From a virus, in IMG/VR virus record IMGVR_UViG_3300025070_000019, positions 32,642-96,641 of that record: DNA of 64,000 nucleotides. One strand, 5' to 3'. Under the pieces are notes generated by a model, which saw only the letters and a list, made by a program, of their open reading frames with translations, was not told where the DNA came from and made no database searches. The position numbers and the translations under genes are program-made. Below are positions 1 to 19,253 of the stretch, in pieces. How positions within the stretch are numbered: position 1 is the stretch's first letter; each line of letters starts with the position of its first letter.

Positions 1-495
1 CCTAGACTACTATCAAAAGCTTTACGAGCTATTAGTAAAATTAGTGTAGATAATCAATGTATGTATTTATTTATTAATCAAGTACGTATAAACATTGGTG
101 TCATGTATGGAAATCCAGAGACAACTTCTGGTGGTAATGCTATACCGTTTTATTCTTCTGTAAGATTACGTGTCAGTAGTAAACCAAGTTCAGACCAACC
201 TAACAGCATTAACATGAAAGTTAAAATTGTTAAAAATAAAGTAGCTCCTGCTCTTAATAAAGTAGCTGAGTTTACATTTTTATGTGGTCAAGGTACTGAT
301 AAATACCTTGACCTTATCGGTTGTGCTAAAGACATGGGGTTACTTCGTTTTGCTGGTTCTACTGTTAAATGTTTTAATGGAGATACAGGAGAAGAAGAAA
401 GTATTTGCACAGGTGGCAAACTTGGTGCTAAACAATACTTTATGGAAAATCAAGATGCATATGAAAGTCTTAAACAACTTTGTTTAACAAATTAG
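1..495 (+). CDS. recA: RecA/UvsX recombinase, C-terminal part (runs off the left edge)
   Basis: Frame is open from base 1: PRLLSKALR..MYLFINQVR..GVMYGNPETTSGGNAIPFYSSVRL..KIVKNKVAP, all RecA signature motifs. Confidence 0.95.
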   Translation, partial: PRLLSKALRAISKISVDNQCMYLFINQVRINIGVMYGNPETTSGGNAIPFYSSVRLRVSSKPSSDQPNSINMKVKIVKNKVAPALNKVAEFTFLCGQGTDKYLDLIGCAKDMGLLRFAGSTVKCFNGDTGEEESICTGGKLGAKQYFMENQDAYESLKQLCLTN

Positions 496-502
496 GAGTA
501 AT

Positions 503-769
503 ATGAAAGCTTTAATAGTTGATACACCATATACAGAATCATTTAAAGGCAAATTCGATAAAATACAAGATAAAGTTTATGATATTTTGCATTTGCTACC
601 ATATAATCAAGATGATGTAGAATTTTTATCTTATTTGGCTGATAACTTCTTAGAAGGTTTAGAAGATTATTATAAAGAGAATGTTTTTAAGTGTAAATGT
701 TGTGAAAGGTTAGCTGTTAAAGGTAACATATGTTCTGACAACTATGAAAAGGATTGTAAAAGACAATGA
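503..769 (+). CDS. Hypothetical protein with a Cys-rich C-terminus
   Basis: 88 aa ORF; AGGAG RBS upstream; CKCC..C..C. Confidence 0.7.
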   Translation: MKALIVDTPYTESFKGKFDKIQDKVYDILHLLPYNQDDVEFLSYLADNFLEGLEDYYKENVFKCKCCERLAVKGNICSDNYEKDCKRQ

Positions 770-2034
770 GTGGAGAGTATGTACACTTACATGTACATAC
801 CGAGTATAGTTTATTAGATGGTATAAATAAGGTTAATAGATTACCACATATTATAAAAGAGATGAATCAACCTGCATTAGCTATGACAGATCATGGCAAT
901 GTATCTGGTTCATTTAAGTTTTATAAAGAGTGTAATAAAGCAGGCGTTAAACCTATTATAGGTATGGAAGCTTATTATACTGTAAATGATAGAACTGCTA
1001 GAGAAAAAGATGAATTAGAAAAATCCTATTATCATCTTATTTTGCTGGCTCAAAATAATATTGGTCTAAAAAATCTTATAAAACTATCTTCTTACGCTTA
1101 TACAGAAGGTATGTACAGGAAACCACGTATTGATGATGCATTAATTGCTCAATACTCTGATGGTATAATTGCAACGACTACTTGTTTAGGTGGTCGTGCA
1201 TCTCAATTAATTATTAATGGCCGAGAAAAAGAAGCTGAAAATTTAATACATCATCATAAAGCAATGTTTAAAAATAGATTTTTAGTTGAATTACAATTAC
1301 ATAAAGACAAAGATCAACAACTAGTTAATAATGTATTACAAAGAATTGCATTAGATAATGACTTACCTATGGTTCTTACAAATGACTGCCACTACACGCA
1401 TGAGCATGATAAGTGTCATCATGAGGCAGCTTTATGTTTGCAAACAAAAACAACTCTTAGTAATGAGAAACGTTTTACTTTTGGTGAAATAGATGTACAT
1501 GTAGCACATCATGACTGGATGTGGAAACATGCAGAAGCTCAAGGAATGCCTTATGATGTTATTAGTAATAGTGTTGCTGTTGCTGATTTAATTGATAGCG
1601 ATTCATATTTTATGGATAGAATGAATCGTTATCCTAAGTATCAAGAGCTACCTGAAGATATGACTTCTATTGATTATCTGAATGTAGAAGCTCAACATGG
1701 ATTGTATAGGAGGTTTAAAGAGTTGCCTCCAGAAGATTATAGAAAACGTTTAGCCTATGAGCTGAAAGTAATTAAAAGAATGGGTTTTGCTGATTATCTT
1801 TTGATTGTTGCACAATTTATGAATGGCGCAAAAGAAAGAGGTGTTTTGCATGGCCCCGGTCGTGGCTCTGCTGCAGGTTCTCTTATTGCTTGGGCACTTG
1901 GTATTACTGAAGTGGATCCAATTAAATATGGATTAGTTTTCGAACGTTTTTTAAATGAAGGTCGTGGTGCTACACCACTTATATTCAATAAACAAATGGC
2001 TTTAATAGCTGATCAAAATGGTTTACCATTTTAA
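766..2034 (+). CDS. dnaE: DNA polymerase III alpha, piece 1 (PHP domain plus start of palm)
   Basis: HLHVHTEYSLLDG, TDHGN, GMEAY, TNDCHY, GPGRGSAAGSL, FERFLN; ends before the catalytic DxD. Confidence 0.95.
   Translation: MSGEYVHLHVHTEYSLLDGINKVNRLPHIIKEMNQPALAMTDHGNVSGSFKFYKECNKAGVKPIIGMEAYYTVNDRTAREKDELEKSYYHLILLAQNNIGLKNLIKLSSYAYTEGMYRKPRIDDALIAQYSDGIIATTTCLGGRASQLIINGREKEAENLIHHHKAMFKNRFLVELQLHKDKDQQLVNNVLQRIALDNDLPMVLTNDCHYTHEHDKCHHEAALCLQTKTTLSNEKRFTFGEIDVHVAHHDWMWKHAEAQGMPYDVISNSVAVADLIDSDSYFMDRMNRYPKYQELPEDMTSIDYLNVEAQHGLYRRFKELPPEDYRKRLAYELKVIKRMGFADYLLIVAQFMNGAKERGVLHGPGRGSAAGSLIAWALGITEVDPIKYGLVFERFLNEGRGATPLIFNKQMALIADQNGLPF
1964..1976 (+). repeat. Direct repeat copy 1, GTGGTGCTACACC
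   Basis: 12/13 identical to 3108-3120, same codon phase (GGT GCT = G-A). Confidence 0.75.
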
Positions 2035-2047
2035 GAAAGAAAAAATA

Positions 2048-2476
2048 ATGCAAATTAAAACTCCTTTTATTGTATACTACGAAGATTACAAAAAAGATAA
2101 CAATATTTTAAATGAAAATATTTATAAAAATTTGAATAAAAGTAATTTAAATTCTTATAAAAGAATTATAAATAGAATCAACAGAAACCTTCACGAAGGT
2201 AACGAGCATGTAGCTCATTATACCAAAAAAGCTATCATTTCATTTGAAAAGAGCGAAATATGTTTTACTAATTTAAGATCTTTTTTAACTTTAAAAGATC
2301 AATTTGTAAATGAACAGTCATTCAATTTAGCAAAGATTAAAACTGCTAGTGAATTTGAAGATTGGGTTAGAAATCAAAATGAAGACAAACCTTTAGAATT
2401 ACTTAATTTAAAAATTCAAGAAATTCAACATAATTTAAATGGTTTAAAAGAGTTATTAAAAAGTTTTGATTTATGA
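2048..2476 (+). CDS. Hypothetical protein between dnaE pieces 1 and 2
   Basis: ORF (ATG 2048 preferred); no recognisable nuclease motif. Confidence 0.65.
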   Translation: MQIKTPFIVYYEDYKKDNNILNENIYKNLNKSNLNSYKRIINRINRNLHEGNEHVAHYTKKAIISFEKSEICFTNLRSFLTLKDQFVNEQSFNLAKIKTASEFEDWVRNQNEDKPLELLNLKIQEIQHNLNGLKELLKSFDL

Positions 2477-2718
2477 AAATTAAAGAAGTACCTATTTTAT
2501 GGAGGATGAATCGTAAAGCTAAAACTGCTACAAACAGTTTTAGTACAGATGGAAGTAACATTTATAGTTATCGTCTTAAAATTGGTTATACAAATGAATA
2601 TGGTCAAAAAGTTTTACTTAGATATACAAAAGAATATAACAATTTCAAAAGTCACACTACTAGTAGACACGTCAATCTAGCAGCTTATCATGCTGACATA
2701 TTTGAAATACCTAGCTAA
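2473..2718 (+). CDS. Small basic hypothetical phage protein
   Basis: 81 aa, ATGA overlap with the previous ORF; IYSY..TTSRHVN pattern. Confidence 0.7.
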   Translation: MKIKEVPILWRMNRKAKTATNSFSTDGSNIYSYRLKIGYTNEYGQKVLLRYTKEYNNFKSHTTSRHVNLAAYHADIFEIPS

Positions 2719-2781
2719 CATCCACCTTTACATCTACGTACGGGTTGTAACATCCAACGTTTAAACATAGAAAGACCCTTT

Positions 2782-2865
2782 ATGCAAAAAATTTGTATTG
2801 AACTTTTTTTAATTCCAGCAATAATTGCTTTTTTTAAAAAAATGAAAAAGAAAAAAAATGTATGA
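2782..2865 (+). CDS. Possible 27 aa hydrophobic/basic peptide (MQKICIELFLIPAIIAFFKKMKKKKNV)
   Basis: Read from sequence (below the ORF-track cutoff); overlaps the dnaE piece 2 start. Confidence 0.35.
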   Translation: MQKICIELFLIPAIIAFFKKMKKKKNV

Positions 2866-4450
2866 CAGTAGAAAAAATAATTTAAAACTCTTAGATGAGA
2901 ATATAATAGATGAAAGATACGATCAAGTCGATCCCGATTATTTAGCTTTTGAAGTTAAAATGGTATCAGATGAAGATTTAGAAAGAATTTTCTGGTTGTT
3001 AACTGAAAAAGTTAAATTTGAATCGAATCCATACAATTCTATCTTGCTTTATATTACAGGGATTACAGATGACTTTAATTTTGATAAAGCTAGATCTGAA
3101 ATGGTTGGTGGTGCTCCACCTGACATTGACATTGACCATGATGCTTTAGACAGAGAAGAAGCGATTCAATGGTGTGTTGATTACTGGGGTAGAGAAAATG
3201 TAGCTAATATTATTACTCATGGTACTTTTAAACCTAAAAGTTTAGCGCGGTCTTTTTATCGTATTACTGAAGGCAATAATGAAGACCTTAACGAGTTACT
3301 TAAAAAGATACCTATGCCTGTATATGGTAAAGAAGCTACATTAGATGAAATACTTGAAGTTGCACCTGAAATAAAAGAAGAAATACGATATGCAAACTTT
3401 TTGGAGTTTGCAGATCGTATTGAAGGTATGGTTTCTACATTTGGTATTCATGCTGCTGGTATTATTATATCTGACACTGAAGTTAATGATACTGTTCCTG
3501 TATGGAAAAATAGCAAGGCAGATCGTATTACTCAATATGATAAAGATGAATGTGAAGAACTTGGTTTGATTAAGTTTGACTTCTTAGGTATAGACACATT
3601 GTCTATTATTAAAGAATGCCGTCATTTAATTAAACATCATACTTTATTAGATATAGAACCATATGCAATTGAAGATGGAGATGAAAGAACTTATCAGACA
3701 CTTTGTAGTGGCTTGCTTACTGGCGTCTTTCAAATGGAAACATCTGGTACTGCTAAAAAACTAATACTTAGTATTCGTCCTAAATCAATAGAAGATTTAT
3801 CTGCTATATCAGCTTTGAATCGTCCAGGTCCGTTACAAGCAGGACTAGATAAACAATATATAGAGAACAAATATAAGGGCTCTCCTCCAAAAGATTTACC
3901 TAGTAATGTTGCTGAAGTATTACAAGCTAGTTACTGGACTTTAGTTTATCAAGAACAAGTAATGGATATATGTTCTAAAATTGCAGGATTCACTCCTAAA
4001 CAAGCTGATGATATTCGTCGTGCTATGGGTAAAAAGAAACATGAAGTATTAGAAAAATATAAAGAACAATTCATTGAAGGTTGTCAATCAATTGGTGGTC
4101 TTGCCAAAGATTATTCAAGTAATCTTTGGGATGATCTTGTCGGTTTTGCAGACTATTGTTTATTAGGTAATACTAAGATTCAAACTGTAGATGGTACTTT
4201 CACAATAAAAGACATAGTTGATAACTTTATTTCAGCAGAAGTATTTAGTTATAGTTTTAAAGATAAAAATTTTATTAAACAAAAAGTATCTCAATGGTAT
4301 AATCGTGGTGTCAAGCCAGTATATCGTTACACGTTAGAAGATGGTACTTATGTCGATTGTACAGAAGATCATAAGTTTTTAACAATAAATGATGATATGC
4401 TTGAAATTGATGCTATATTTGATAAAAATATAAAATTAAAGACTAAATAA
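2858..4450 (+). CDS. dnaE: DNA polymerase III alpha, piece 2 (catalytic palm/thumb/fingers) fused to split intein N-half
   Basis: PDIDID, GIHAAG, KFDFLG, GVFQME, ALNRPGP, VYQEQVM, RRAMGKK, then FADY|CL intein start. Confidence 0.95.
   Translation: MYDSRKNNLKLLDENIIDERYDQVDPDYLAFEVKMVSDEDLERIFWLLTEKVKFESNPYNSILLYITGITDDFNFDKARSEMVGGAPPDIDIDHDALDREEAIQWCVDYWGRENVANIITHGTFKPKSLARSFYRITEGNNEDLNELLKKIPMPVYGKEATLDEILEVAPEIKEEIRYANFLEFADRIEGMVSTFGIHAAGIIISDTEVNDTVPVWKNSKADRITQYDKDECEELGLIKFDFLGIDTLSIIKECRHLIKHHTLLDIEPYAIEDGDERTYQTLCSGLLTGVFQMETSGTAKKLILSIRPKSIEDLSAISALNRPGPLQAGLDKQYIENKYKGSPPKDLPSNVAEVLQASYWTLVYQEQVMDICSKIAGFTPKQADDIRRAMGKKKHEVLEKYKEQFIEGCQSIGGLAKDYSSNLWDDLVGFADYCLLGNTKIQTVDGTFTIKDIVDNFISAEVFSYSFKDKNFIKQKVSQWYNRGVKPVYRYTLEDGTYVDCTEDHKFLTINDDMLEIDAIFDKNIKLKTK
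3108..3120 (+). repeat. Direct repeat copy 2, GTGGTGCTCCACC
   Basis: 12/13 identical to 1964-1976; immediately before the PDIDID codons. Confidence 0.75.
4157..4447 (+). mobile_element. Split intein N-fragment (IntN, 97 aa), Npu/Ssp DnaE-like
   Basis: Cys1 after FADY; CLLGNTKIQTVDG..VSQWYNRGVKPVYRYTLEDG..CTEDHKFLT (block B TxxH)..MLEIDAIF, then stop. Confidence 0.95.
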
Positions 4451-4461
4451 AAAGGTATCTT

Positions 4462-4833
4462 ATGGCTACTCATGCAGAATCTAAAAATCAAGGTACTATA
4501 ATTGTAGATAGTACACTTAATATAGAAAATATCAACAATAGTGATCAAGGTTTATCAGTAGGACAAGTAATGACTATTCTACCTAAATCTCATGACCTTT
4601 CATCTCAGTGTGATGGTAGCTTAAAAGATTTTGTTTTAAGTCCAGCAGTAGTTCAAAATACTTTAAACTTTTTTAGTTTATATTTAGACGGTGTATTGCT
4701 TACAAGATCAGCAGATTTAACAATTTCAGACTATGTAGTATCTTCTCATAGTCAAATTAATTTACATCAATCAATACCTGCACCTCCTGCAGGTTCTAGT
4801 TTAATTGCTATTTATATAGGAGTAGTAGGATAA
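4462..4833 (+). CDS. Small virion structural protein (HDLSSQ..F.L..DG..DY domain)
   Basis: Paralogous to 12199-12504; domain type typical of phage virion/fibre proteins. Confidence 0.6.
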   Translation: MATHAESKNQGTIIVDSTLNIENINNSDQGLSVGQVMTILPKSHDLSSQCDGSLKDFVLSPAVVQNTLNFFSLYLDGVLLTRSADLTISDYVVSSHSQINLHQSIPAPPAGSSLIAIYIGVVG

Positions 4834-17956: not shown

Positions 17957-17986
17957 AAAGCGTCTTAATTGACGCTTTTGTTTTTT
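17957..17986 (+). terminator. Intrinsic terminator-like hairpin just upstream of dnaE piece 3
   Basis: AAAGCGTC-ttaatt-GACGCTTT followed by TGTTTTTT. Confidence 0.6.
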
Positions 17987-17999
17987 GAGGTATGTAAAA

Positions 18000-18113
18000 A
18001 TGAAAATTGTAAAAAAAGAATTTCTTGGTAACCAAGAAGTTTACGATATCGGTGTGTCTTCTAACGAAGATGCACATAACTTTTTGCTAGATAATAACTT
18101 GATAGCAAGTAAT
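18000..18113 (+). mobile_element. Split intein C-fragment (IntC, 38 aa)
   Basis: MKIVKKEFLGNQEVYDIGV..HNFLLDNNLIASN followed by Cys+1; matches Npu/Ssp DnaE IntC blocks F/G. Confidence 0.95.
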
Positions 18114-19253
18114 TGTTTTAACAAAGCGCATTCAGTTAGCTATTCTATGTTAACTTATATTAGTGCTTATCTAAAAACTCACTACCCTGTTTACTTTTTT
18201 ACTGCTTTGATGTCTACTCGATCTAAAACTTTACAACCTAAATCATGGGCTGTTAAAGCTCCTGAATATGTATTGGAAGCAAAAAAATTTAATATAGATA
18301 TAAATACTCCTAGTGTTAATAAATCAGGTTATGAATTTACTATCTTTAATAATGAAGTATACTTTGGGTTAAATGCTATAAGAGACGTAGGTAAAACAGC
18401 AGCTAAAAGTATTATCAAAGCGAGAAAGAATGTCCCATTTAAAGACATTCTTGATTTTGTCGAACGTGTTAACTTGCAAAAAGTAAATACTAAAACTTTT
18501 GAAGCATTAGCCTATGCAGGTGCTTTTGATAGAATGGGTTACTCTCGTAAAGAGCTTATAGAAAAAACTTCTGAAATATATTCCTATATAAGAGATTTAG
18601 AAGATTATCGACAACGTAAAATAGATGCAGCTGCTAGACGAGAAAAAAATGCTCGCAATACACCTTTAATAGAAAGACGTAACTTTTTACGTAAAGAAAT
18701 AAAAAAAATAAACAATCGTATCAATAAGGATAAAGCTAAAGAAGAAGACTTTGAGAATTTGACTGTGTATGAAAATGAACTAGAACCTTTAGAAGACTTA
18801 GGACTTAAGAAACTAGTTGATCTTAAAGAAAAAGAAAGACCTGTTTTTCCTGAGTTAAAACGCAATAGTTCTGTTGAGTTAGATCTTCAGGATATAACTC
18901 AACAAGCACACTACATTGGCTGTTACTTAGGTGGACACCCTTTGCAATTTGTACAAGTAAGTGGTGTTTCTCAAATTATTTCATTAGATATCGGTGAAAT
19001 TGATACAATAGCTGGTGTAATATTAGGCATTCGTGAGATTACTACTCGTAAAGGCAAAAAAATGGCTGTTATAGATGTAAACGACTCAACGAATACTACT
19101 GAAATAGTTTGTTTTCCTTCAACATGGTCTAAGATAAATAATATGAATTTAAAAACTGGTGATATAGTTAAAGCTAAAATCAAAGTAGAAGAGACAGATC
19201 CAGACTATAAAATGATATTATTCAGCTTAACTACTGTTGATCAAAATCAATAA
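18000..19253 (+). CDS. dnaE: Split intein C-half fused to DNA polymerase III alpha piece 3 (fingers end, HhH, OB fold)
   Basis: GAGG RBS, ATG 18000; ..ASN|CFNKAHSVSY..AYLKTHYP..PSVNKS..FGLNAIRDVG..AGAFD..GCYLGGHPL..TRKGKKMA. Confidence 0.95.
   Translation: MKIVKKEFLGNQEVYDIGVSSNEDAHNFLLDNNLIASNCFNKAHSVSYSMLTYISAYLKTHYPVYFFTALMSTRSKTLQPKSWAVKAPEYVLEAKKFNIDINTPSVNKSGYEFTIFNNEVYFGLNAIRDVGKTAAKSIIKARKNVPFKDILDFVERVNLQKVNTKTFEALAYAGAFDRMGYSRKELIEKTSEIYSYIRDLEDYRQRKIDAAARREKNARNTPLIERRNFLRKEIKKINNRINKDKAKEEDFENLTVYENELEPLEDLGLKKLVDLKEKERPVFPELKRNSSVELDLQDITQQAHYIGCYLGGHPLQFVQVSGVSQIISLDIGEIDTIAGVILGIREITTRKGKKMAVIDVNDSTNTTEIVCFPSTWSKINNMNLKTGDIVKAKIKVEETDPDYKMILFSLTTVDQNQ

Follow-up and report, generated by a model that had tools for sequence, protein, structure and literature searches.

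How can a DNA polymerase of family C be built when its active site is encoded in two genes? The question is raised by a 64-kb stretch of DNA (called the window here), which is the final part of a 96.6-kb virus record of IMG/VR (IMGVR_UViG_3300025070_000019; completeness estimate 59%). Its source is probably an uncultured marine phage, and the dnaE gene that it carries in pieces on the + strand probably encodes the replicative polymerase of that phage. C-family polymerases are textbook single-chain catalytic subunits. Here all features of a C-family DnaE are found (PHP, GS loop, DxD, third Asp, fingers, HhH, and OB), and the catalytic core is distributed over two polypeptides, the first ending at a stop codon at 2032-2034 and the second beginning at a new start at 2858. 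This layout is common to all close relatives. A sequence-only reading of the window had described an intein-free break through the active-site region of DnaE, and the open reading frames (ORFs) and motifs on which that description relied are all in place.

The first gene, piece 1 (766..2034, + strand), was delimited by Pfam matches and alignments. It encodes 422 amino acids (aa) comprising PHP, the N-subdomain of the palm, which binds the phosphates of the deoxynucleoside triphosphate (dNTP), and a short conserved tail. Pfam places PHP (PF02811, E 1.2e-48) at residues 7-179, and piece 1 further covers positions 2-102 of the 260-position DNA_pol3_alpha profile (PF07733). Solved single-chain DnaE proteins are matched at E 7.9e-89 to 7e-51, and the alignment extends over 6-463 of T. 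aquaticus (Taq) DnaE and over 5-400 of E. coli DnaE. The GS loop is G365-R366-G367-S368 (1858..1869, +), which corresponds by alignment offset to E. coli R362-G363-S364. The FERFLNEGR helix spans F392-R400 (1939..1965, +), with R394 corresponding to E. coli R390. From the structure papers on Pol III alpha, we take E. coli R362-G363-S364 and R390 to be triphosphate contacts. In 50 piece-1 sequences, which drop to 28% overall identity, G363, G365, R366, G367, S368, G371, F392, R394, L396, and R400 are invariant, and the PHP metal-ligand positions (H7, H9, D18, H43, E68, H90, C140, D207, and H209) are invariant or nearly so. Piece 1 ends about 20 residues past the FERFLN..R helix. Its tail (1966..2031, +) reads GATPLIFNK...PF in place of the DxD strand, with Leu/Phe where Asp is expected. 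The tail is conserved in the relatives L005-L009, and its residues P404 and F407 are near-invariant among the 50 sequences.

The second gene, piece 2 (2858..4450, +; 530 aa; delimited in the same way), encodes an N-terminal extension, the C-terminal half of the palm, the thumb, the fingers, and the N-terminal part of an intein. It matches DNA_pol3_alpha at profile positions 100-260, the finger domain (PF17657), and the intein N-part, while residues 1-85 have no match in Pfam or PHROGs. From residue 86 onward, piece 2 aligns from Taq 460 and E. coli 398, and its structural alignments with solved DnaE chains have 33-34% identity. The metal-binding DxD strand, P88-D89-I-D91-I-D93 (3119..3136, +), corresponds to E. 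coli D401/D403 in the Taq/E. coli alignment. The third catalytic Asp and the Lys are found in K239-F-D241-F-L-G (3572..3589, +), where K239 and D241 correspond to E. coli K553 and D555. D89, D91, D93, K239, and D241 are invariant in 61 piece-2 sequences, as is F240.

The gene is interrupted a second time, by a split intein of the cyanobacterial DnaE kind (4157-4447 / 17985 onward). The N-half of this intein begins at C434 of piece 2 (4157-4447, +; Pfam intein match at residues 448-517). Piece 3 (17985..19253, +; 422 aa), an ORF with an HHH_6 match, supplies the C-half of the intein, HhH (PF14579), and a C-terminus that contains OB; the latter was recognized as PF01336 in the fused relative L008. 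L008 has no intein, and its pieces 2 and 3 form one 807-aa protein with HHH_6 and the OB fold. The palm cut is still present in L008, so the palm break and the intein break are independent of each other.

The position of the palm break follows from the alignments. Because the Taq alignment of piece 1 ends at 463 and that of piece 2 begins at 460, the cut sits between the FERFLN..R helix and the DxD strand, and the two pieces are complementary on the Pfam profile, on Taq, and on E. coli. This alignment had been proposed in the sequence-only reading, which had assigned the RGS loop and FERFLN..R to piece 1, with GATPLIFNK at the DxD position, and PDIDID and KFD to piece 2; that division is borne out. 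hhalign pairs GATPLIF of the piece-1 tail with GAPPDIDID of piece 2. Thus the overlap of both genes seems to include the DxD strand, with Leu/Phe replacing Asp on piece 1.

Both genes are found in all seven contigs of close relatives (62-80% protein identity). In three records of a distant large-phage clade (~30% identity), the piece-2-like gene begins with the same kind of extension. The piece-1-like gene of this clade encodes 462-469 aa, is located 7-9 kb from piece 2, and ends about 20 residues after the RGS ... RFLSPARGG motifs.

What, then, is the extension at the N-terminus of piece 2 (2858..3118, +; 87 aa)? In it, N-P-x-N-S replaces the GS loop, and there is no FERF..R helix. The extension is a diverged second copy of the palm N-subdomain, as judged by profile comparisons through an intermediate family and by fold-search hits. 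Direct comparisons were weak. No significant BLASTP match was obtained between the end of piece 1 and the start of piece 2 (E 0.13), and a first hhalign run gave a match of only 12 columns (E 0.11). The marine extension compared directly with the canonical subdomain profile gave E 0.13 and 0.022, and 4 of 200 column shuffles were equally good. Extension profiles of the marine type and of the huge-phage type, on the other hand, match each other at E 1.2e-7 over 85 columns, and the huge-phage type matches the canonical subdomain profile (from 96 piece-1 proteins) at E 1.6e-5 over 64 columns. When piece 2 is compared with unsplit phage DnaE by BLAST, the alignments continue through the extension and are collinear with the canonical segment. 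The huge-phage extension alone has its best, non-significant match at the place of the canonical subdomain in a 1159-aa DnaE.

Structure prediction points the same way. The extension modelled alone has a predicted local distance difference test score (pLDDT) of 79-92 for residues 1-70. In an exhaustive structural search of 48,161 chains with this model, the top five matches were all C-family polymerases; their Z scores are only 3.9-4.6, so that the weight of the search rests on the identity and the position of the matches. The matched regions are 284-386 in E. coli, 313-406 in M. tuberculosis, and 821-917 in PolC, with 76-84 residues aligned at 3.4-5.0 Å. A Foldseek search of the same model against the PDB gave no match.

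The extension is strongly conserved, with E32, N57, N60, F73, and G85 invariant in the 61 piece-2 sequences. Having its own invariant set and no GS loop, it is under selection, though not for the canonical chemistry. A short remnant, FD..K.RS, is found in the extension at the position of the FERF helix, and in the huge-phage type the basic residues of this remnant are lost too. The earlier description of the piece-2 N-terminus as a degenerate copy of the upstream segment is borne out, through intermediates, with two corrections: the copy is conserved and not decaying, and it retains the FD..K.RS remnant.

How the pieces work together can be proposed from these observations. We consider it fairly probable that the products of pieces 1 and 2 form a two-protein enzyme sharing one active site, with piece 1 completing piece 2 non-covalently. 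A replicative C-family polymerase would thus be assembled from separate gene products. Piece 1 would supply PHP proofreading and the triphosphate-gripping palm subdomain (RGS loop, R394, and R400). Piece 2, joined to piece 3 by the split intein, would supply D89, D91, D241, K239, the thumb, the fingers, and the DNA-binding C-terminus. The two proteins would associate without a covalent bond, and the canonical subdomain of piece 1 would complete the active site of piece 2. The proposal is supported by the distribution of the dNTP-contact residues, which are kept on piece 1 and lost from the piece-2 copy, where other residues are invariant. That the piece-1 copy has retained every one of them over a long divergence is the strongest argument for placing this copy at the active site. 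Both the physical association and the choice of the copy that occupies the site are what we infer. Among the three options offered by the sequence-only reading (complementation in trans, joining at the RNA/DNA level, and a remodelled site on piece 2), complementation in trans has the best support, on evolutionary grounds.

The simplest history leading to such an enzyme would begin with a duplication, either partial and in tandem or trimmed afterwards by complementary truncation, by which both genes retained the N-subdomain and the DxD strand. The piece-2 copy would then have lost the dNTP-contact residues, while the tail of piece 1 would be a DxD strand without its Asp residues. The conserved leftovers, extension and tail, may now be docking elements, possibly pairing with each other.

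Some points weigh against a composite site of this kind. The N-subdomain copy of piece 2 is covalently attached and would be expected to hold the canonical position and to compete with piece 1. The monomer model of piece 2 leaves the placement of the copy uncertain (pLDDT below 50 in the linker at residues 80-86; predicted template modelling score, pTM, 0.53). In the 433-residue model of piece 2, the extension is not superposed on solved DnaE, and the structural alignments start at residues 85-91. A different reading holds that pieces 2 and 3 by themselves make up a full polymerase lacking PHP, with a remodelled pocket (N57, N60, and S61 replacing the RGS loop), and that piece 1 acts as a detachable PHP exonuclease whose palm fragment serves only as a handle. 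In favor of this reading, the extension adopts the fold of the canonical subdomain, is attached covalently where that subdomain belongs, immediately ahead of the DxD strand, and carries conserved, invariant polar residues where the GS loop would be. The PHP metal ligands kept on piece 1 fit this reading as well. In addition, there is a DnaE family (phrog_11165, 782 positions) that has the canonical palm segment near its N-terminus and is probably PHP-less. A non-catalytic handle, however, is not expected to keep all dNTP-contact residues invariant, and the huge-phage extension has lost even the basic residues of the FERF remnant, so that piece 2 would be left without recognizable triphosphate-binding residues from an N-subdomain. 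On balance we regard the remodelled site as less probable than the composite one. A reciprocally swapped heterodimer is an attractive but tentative idea. In such a complex, the N-subdomain of piece 1 would sit on the DxD sheet of piece 2, and the dead copy together with the piece-1 tail would form a pseudo-palm latch; recombination could re-fuse the gene. If this is true, polymerase activity would be present only when the proofreading subunit is bound.

Two further explanations were considered. One holds that the reading frames are joined by a group I or group II intron, translational bypassing, or DNA excision, giving an ordinary single-chain DnaE. Phage DNA-metabolism genes are common intron sites, GA fused to PPDIDID would restore normal spacing exactly at the gap, and the 8-nucleotide (nt) word GTGGTGCT is present at both break points of the window. 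This word encodes Gly-Ala in preferred codons. As a joining site it was rejected, as it is merely 8 nt of exact repeat and is absent from L005-L009. Rfam gave no match at the gathering threshold anywhere in the window, and 1850-3250 matched no intron family at E up to 10. In close relatives, the gap varies from 418 to 1679 nt and contains 0 to ~5 differing small ORFs, and in the distant clade it is replaced by the distance of 7-9 kb. Joining would also discard the tail and the extension, both of which are conserved as protein. No nuclease or recombinase family is matched by gap ORFs in the window or in three relatives (L005, L007, and L009), with no HNH, GIY-YIG, or LAGLIDADG found at E up to 1. 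An intein is equally absent from this break. The only Pfam intein match in piece 2 is the one at residues 448-517, with none over the tail or the extension, and the junctions have no conserved Cys, Ser, or Thr nucleophile and no HN motif; the tail begins with Thr-Pro, and the extension terminates with Gly-Ala-Pro. In four marine metagenome runs, possibly the source samples, assembled contigs run collinearly across 1500-3500 with 0-1 differences and without joints, although such contigs cannot reveal rare forms. Joining of the frames, which the sequence-only reading had allowed for, is therefore highly improbable. Very improbable, too, is a dnaE in decay or wrongly assembled, interrupted by an insertion and heading for loss. 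The stop codon of piece 1 does come soon after the canonical sequence ends, and the gap ORFs cannot be annotated. Yet neither half is damaged, both are conserved across hundreds of clusters, the same sequence was assembled in several metagenome runs, and no further polymerase of family A, B, or C is found in a complete relative. The collinear contigs also argue against an assembly artefact. The palm break is a true gene fission without splicing.

Two ORFs are found in the gap of the window. The first (2018..2476, +; 152 aa) has no relatives among the fetched loci and no family match. The second (2473..2718, +; 81 aa) has homologues at the same place in L005, L006, and L009-L011 (47-55% identity) and no match in Pfam or PHROGs. 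As the gap ORFs differ between phages, the gap is a recurrent landing site for small cargo genes. An A/T-rich hairpin lies within the gap at 2803-2843. Another, terminator-like hairpin (1964-1978; GTGGTG CTA CACCAC followed by a T-rich run) is located exactly where piece 1 departs from canonical DnaE; its stem is not preserved in the DNA of relatives.

How widespread is the split enzyme? The palm-split DnaE family is abundant in marine viromes and huge phages. When residues 1-135 of piece 2 were used in a word-indexed search, 167 clusters (90% identity level) were recovered, on contigs of up to ~180 kb; the proteins are 530-550 aa with the N-intein and 800-840 aa without it. About 110 metagenomic clusters (388-497 aa) were listed when the end of piece 1 was searched in this way. 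In an exhaustive search of 1.84 billion proteins, the extension profile matched 140 representative clusters (50% identity level), and in nearly all of them the match is at residues 1 to ~90. Among the exceptions checked, one has cpYpsA SLOG in front and one has the palm half only, with PHP in neither; two further exceptions are helix-turn-helix proteins and look like chance matches. The protein with cpYpsA SLOG ahead of the extension (P0358, 611 aa; PF12694, E 1.4e-29) may be a true fusion or a gene-calling artefact. A search for other phages with the same overlap, suggested in the sequence-only reading, has thus yielded seven close relatives, the distant clade, and the 140 extension clusters.

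Among deposited phages the picture is different. tblastn with both extension types against 50,697 phage records gave no match, no close relative of piece 2 was found in phage records (every match below 60% identity), and a nucleotide search of these records gave only short matches to unsplit dnaE genes. No cultured phage with the palm-split layout was identified in these searches. One relative, G004, is a complete genome (161.8 kb with terminal repeats), in which PF07733 is present only as the two halves. G004 has no match to the Pfam models of family A or B polymerases used here; PF00136 (family B) matches neither G004 nor the record to which the window belongs. With PF07733 limited to these halves and neither family A nor family B matched by these models in G004, the split DnaE is probably the replicase. 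Domain 2 of the beta clamp (PF02767) was not found in G004.

The origin of the split was examined with a tree of the 300 residues after DxD. This tree, which is small and unrooted, has a marine split clade and a huge-phage split clade. The sister of the huge-phage split clade is an unsplit 1179-aa DnaE (L031:2839-6378) from a 595-kb uncultured phage record (LR756511.1), which is 47-50% identical to both huge-phage-type pieces, and other unsplit phage DnaE fall between the two split clades. On such a tree, two independent fissions would be the most parsimonious history. The two extension families, however, appear more similar to one another than to the canonical subdomain, as would be expected from a single origin and later re-fusion or module exchange. 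Recombination across the overlap could re-fuse the gene and would account for the unsplit DnaE of LR756511.1 as a sister to the split clade.

Further interruptions and neighbors were noticed around these genes. In L009 (6951-8205), and also in L010 and L011, piece 2 is cut again into parts ~1.25 kb apart. The upstream ORF stops just past the finger motif ...SAISA(L/I)N, and the next ORF restarts with RPGPLQ. Proteins of ~324 aa (P0019, P0048, P0059, P0064, and P0095) show this extra cut, which may reflect an intron, a nuclease cassette, or a split without an intein. In the huge-phage clade, a gene for an AAA+ ATPase (PF00004) is located directly upstream of piece 2 (L013:4793-5842, L014:4796-5863, and L016:4797-5825); it may encode a clamp-loader-like partner.

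At the left end of the window, which has a GC content of ~29%, the order on the + strand is a recA-like gene (1-495, running off the left edge), an 88-aa ORF, and dnaE in pieces. In several relatives, the recA-like gene is interrupted after residue 38 by 285-940 bp (L007:2715-3657; L009-L011:2632-2917), and residues 1-162 of the recA-like gene of the window align to both parts. The insert in L007 contains a 271-aa ORF, the end of which is conserved among relatives. This interruption looks like an intron or a mobile insertion. The window has no tRNA genes, and promoter-like sites within 400-4600 are no more frequent than in shuffled sequence.

If the composite site is real, there is a large natural family of C-family polymerases in which the active site comes from two proteins. 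It would offer a natural system for studying the coupling of polymerisation and PHP proofreading, would illustrate how a gene can undergo fission within an active site through duplication and complementary loss, and might provide a two-component polymerase for engineering. In a non-exhaustive search, surveys of bacterial and viral C-family polymerases were found not to mention the palm-split layout.

Compared with the single-chain DnaE of T. aquaticus (2HPI/3E0D), M. tuberculosis (5LEW/7PU7), and E. coli (2HNH/5FKU), the phage enzyme has all domains and catalytic residues in collinear order and keeps the PHP ligand positions. It differs in that the chain is cut and the downstream protein has an extra, diverged copy of the N-subdomain. 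The second break of the same protein matches the split DnaE intein of the cyanobacterial type, while no intein features are seen at the palm break.

For the position of the cut, the nearest precedent comes from T4-like group 2.2 jumbo phages, where a 'minimal' Pol III alpha is predicted to be split into an NTP-binding protein and a Mg/template-binding protein (Iyer et al. 2021, Viruses 13:63, PMC7824862). That minimal Pol III alpha is described as devoid of further Pol III alpha domains and as present beside a family B polymerase, and its separate genes are predicted to reconstitute one enzyme (PMC7824862). Compared by description only, the split between NTP-binding and Mg-binding subdomains is the same. 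The enzyme described here, however, is full size, with PHP, thumb, fingers, HhH, and OB; its complete relative G004 has no family A or B polymerase by Pfam match; and it has both the duplicated-subdomain overlap between the two proteins and a third piece attached by a split intein.

Another comparison is with essential replication enzymes that are encoded in two cistrons because of inserted DNA, as are the family B polymerase gp43A/gp43B of Aeromonas phages 25 and 44RR and NrdA of Aeh1. gp43A/gp43B belongs to another polymerase family. The gp43 and NrdA splits are young, are found in few phages, and are linked to homing-endonuclease genes or an untranslated spacer. In contrast, the DnaE split is old and widespread, with a duplicated overlap and no nuclease gene detected in the gap. 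Without any splicing, gp43A and gp43B of phage 25 co-purify and have polymerase activity, and the NrdA of Aeh1 is likewise active in its split form (PMC2988022), indicating that phage enzymes split in such a manner can work.

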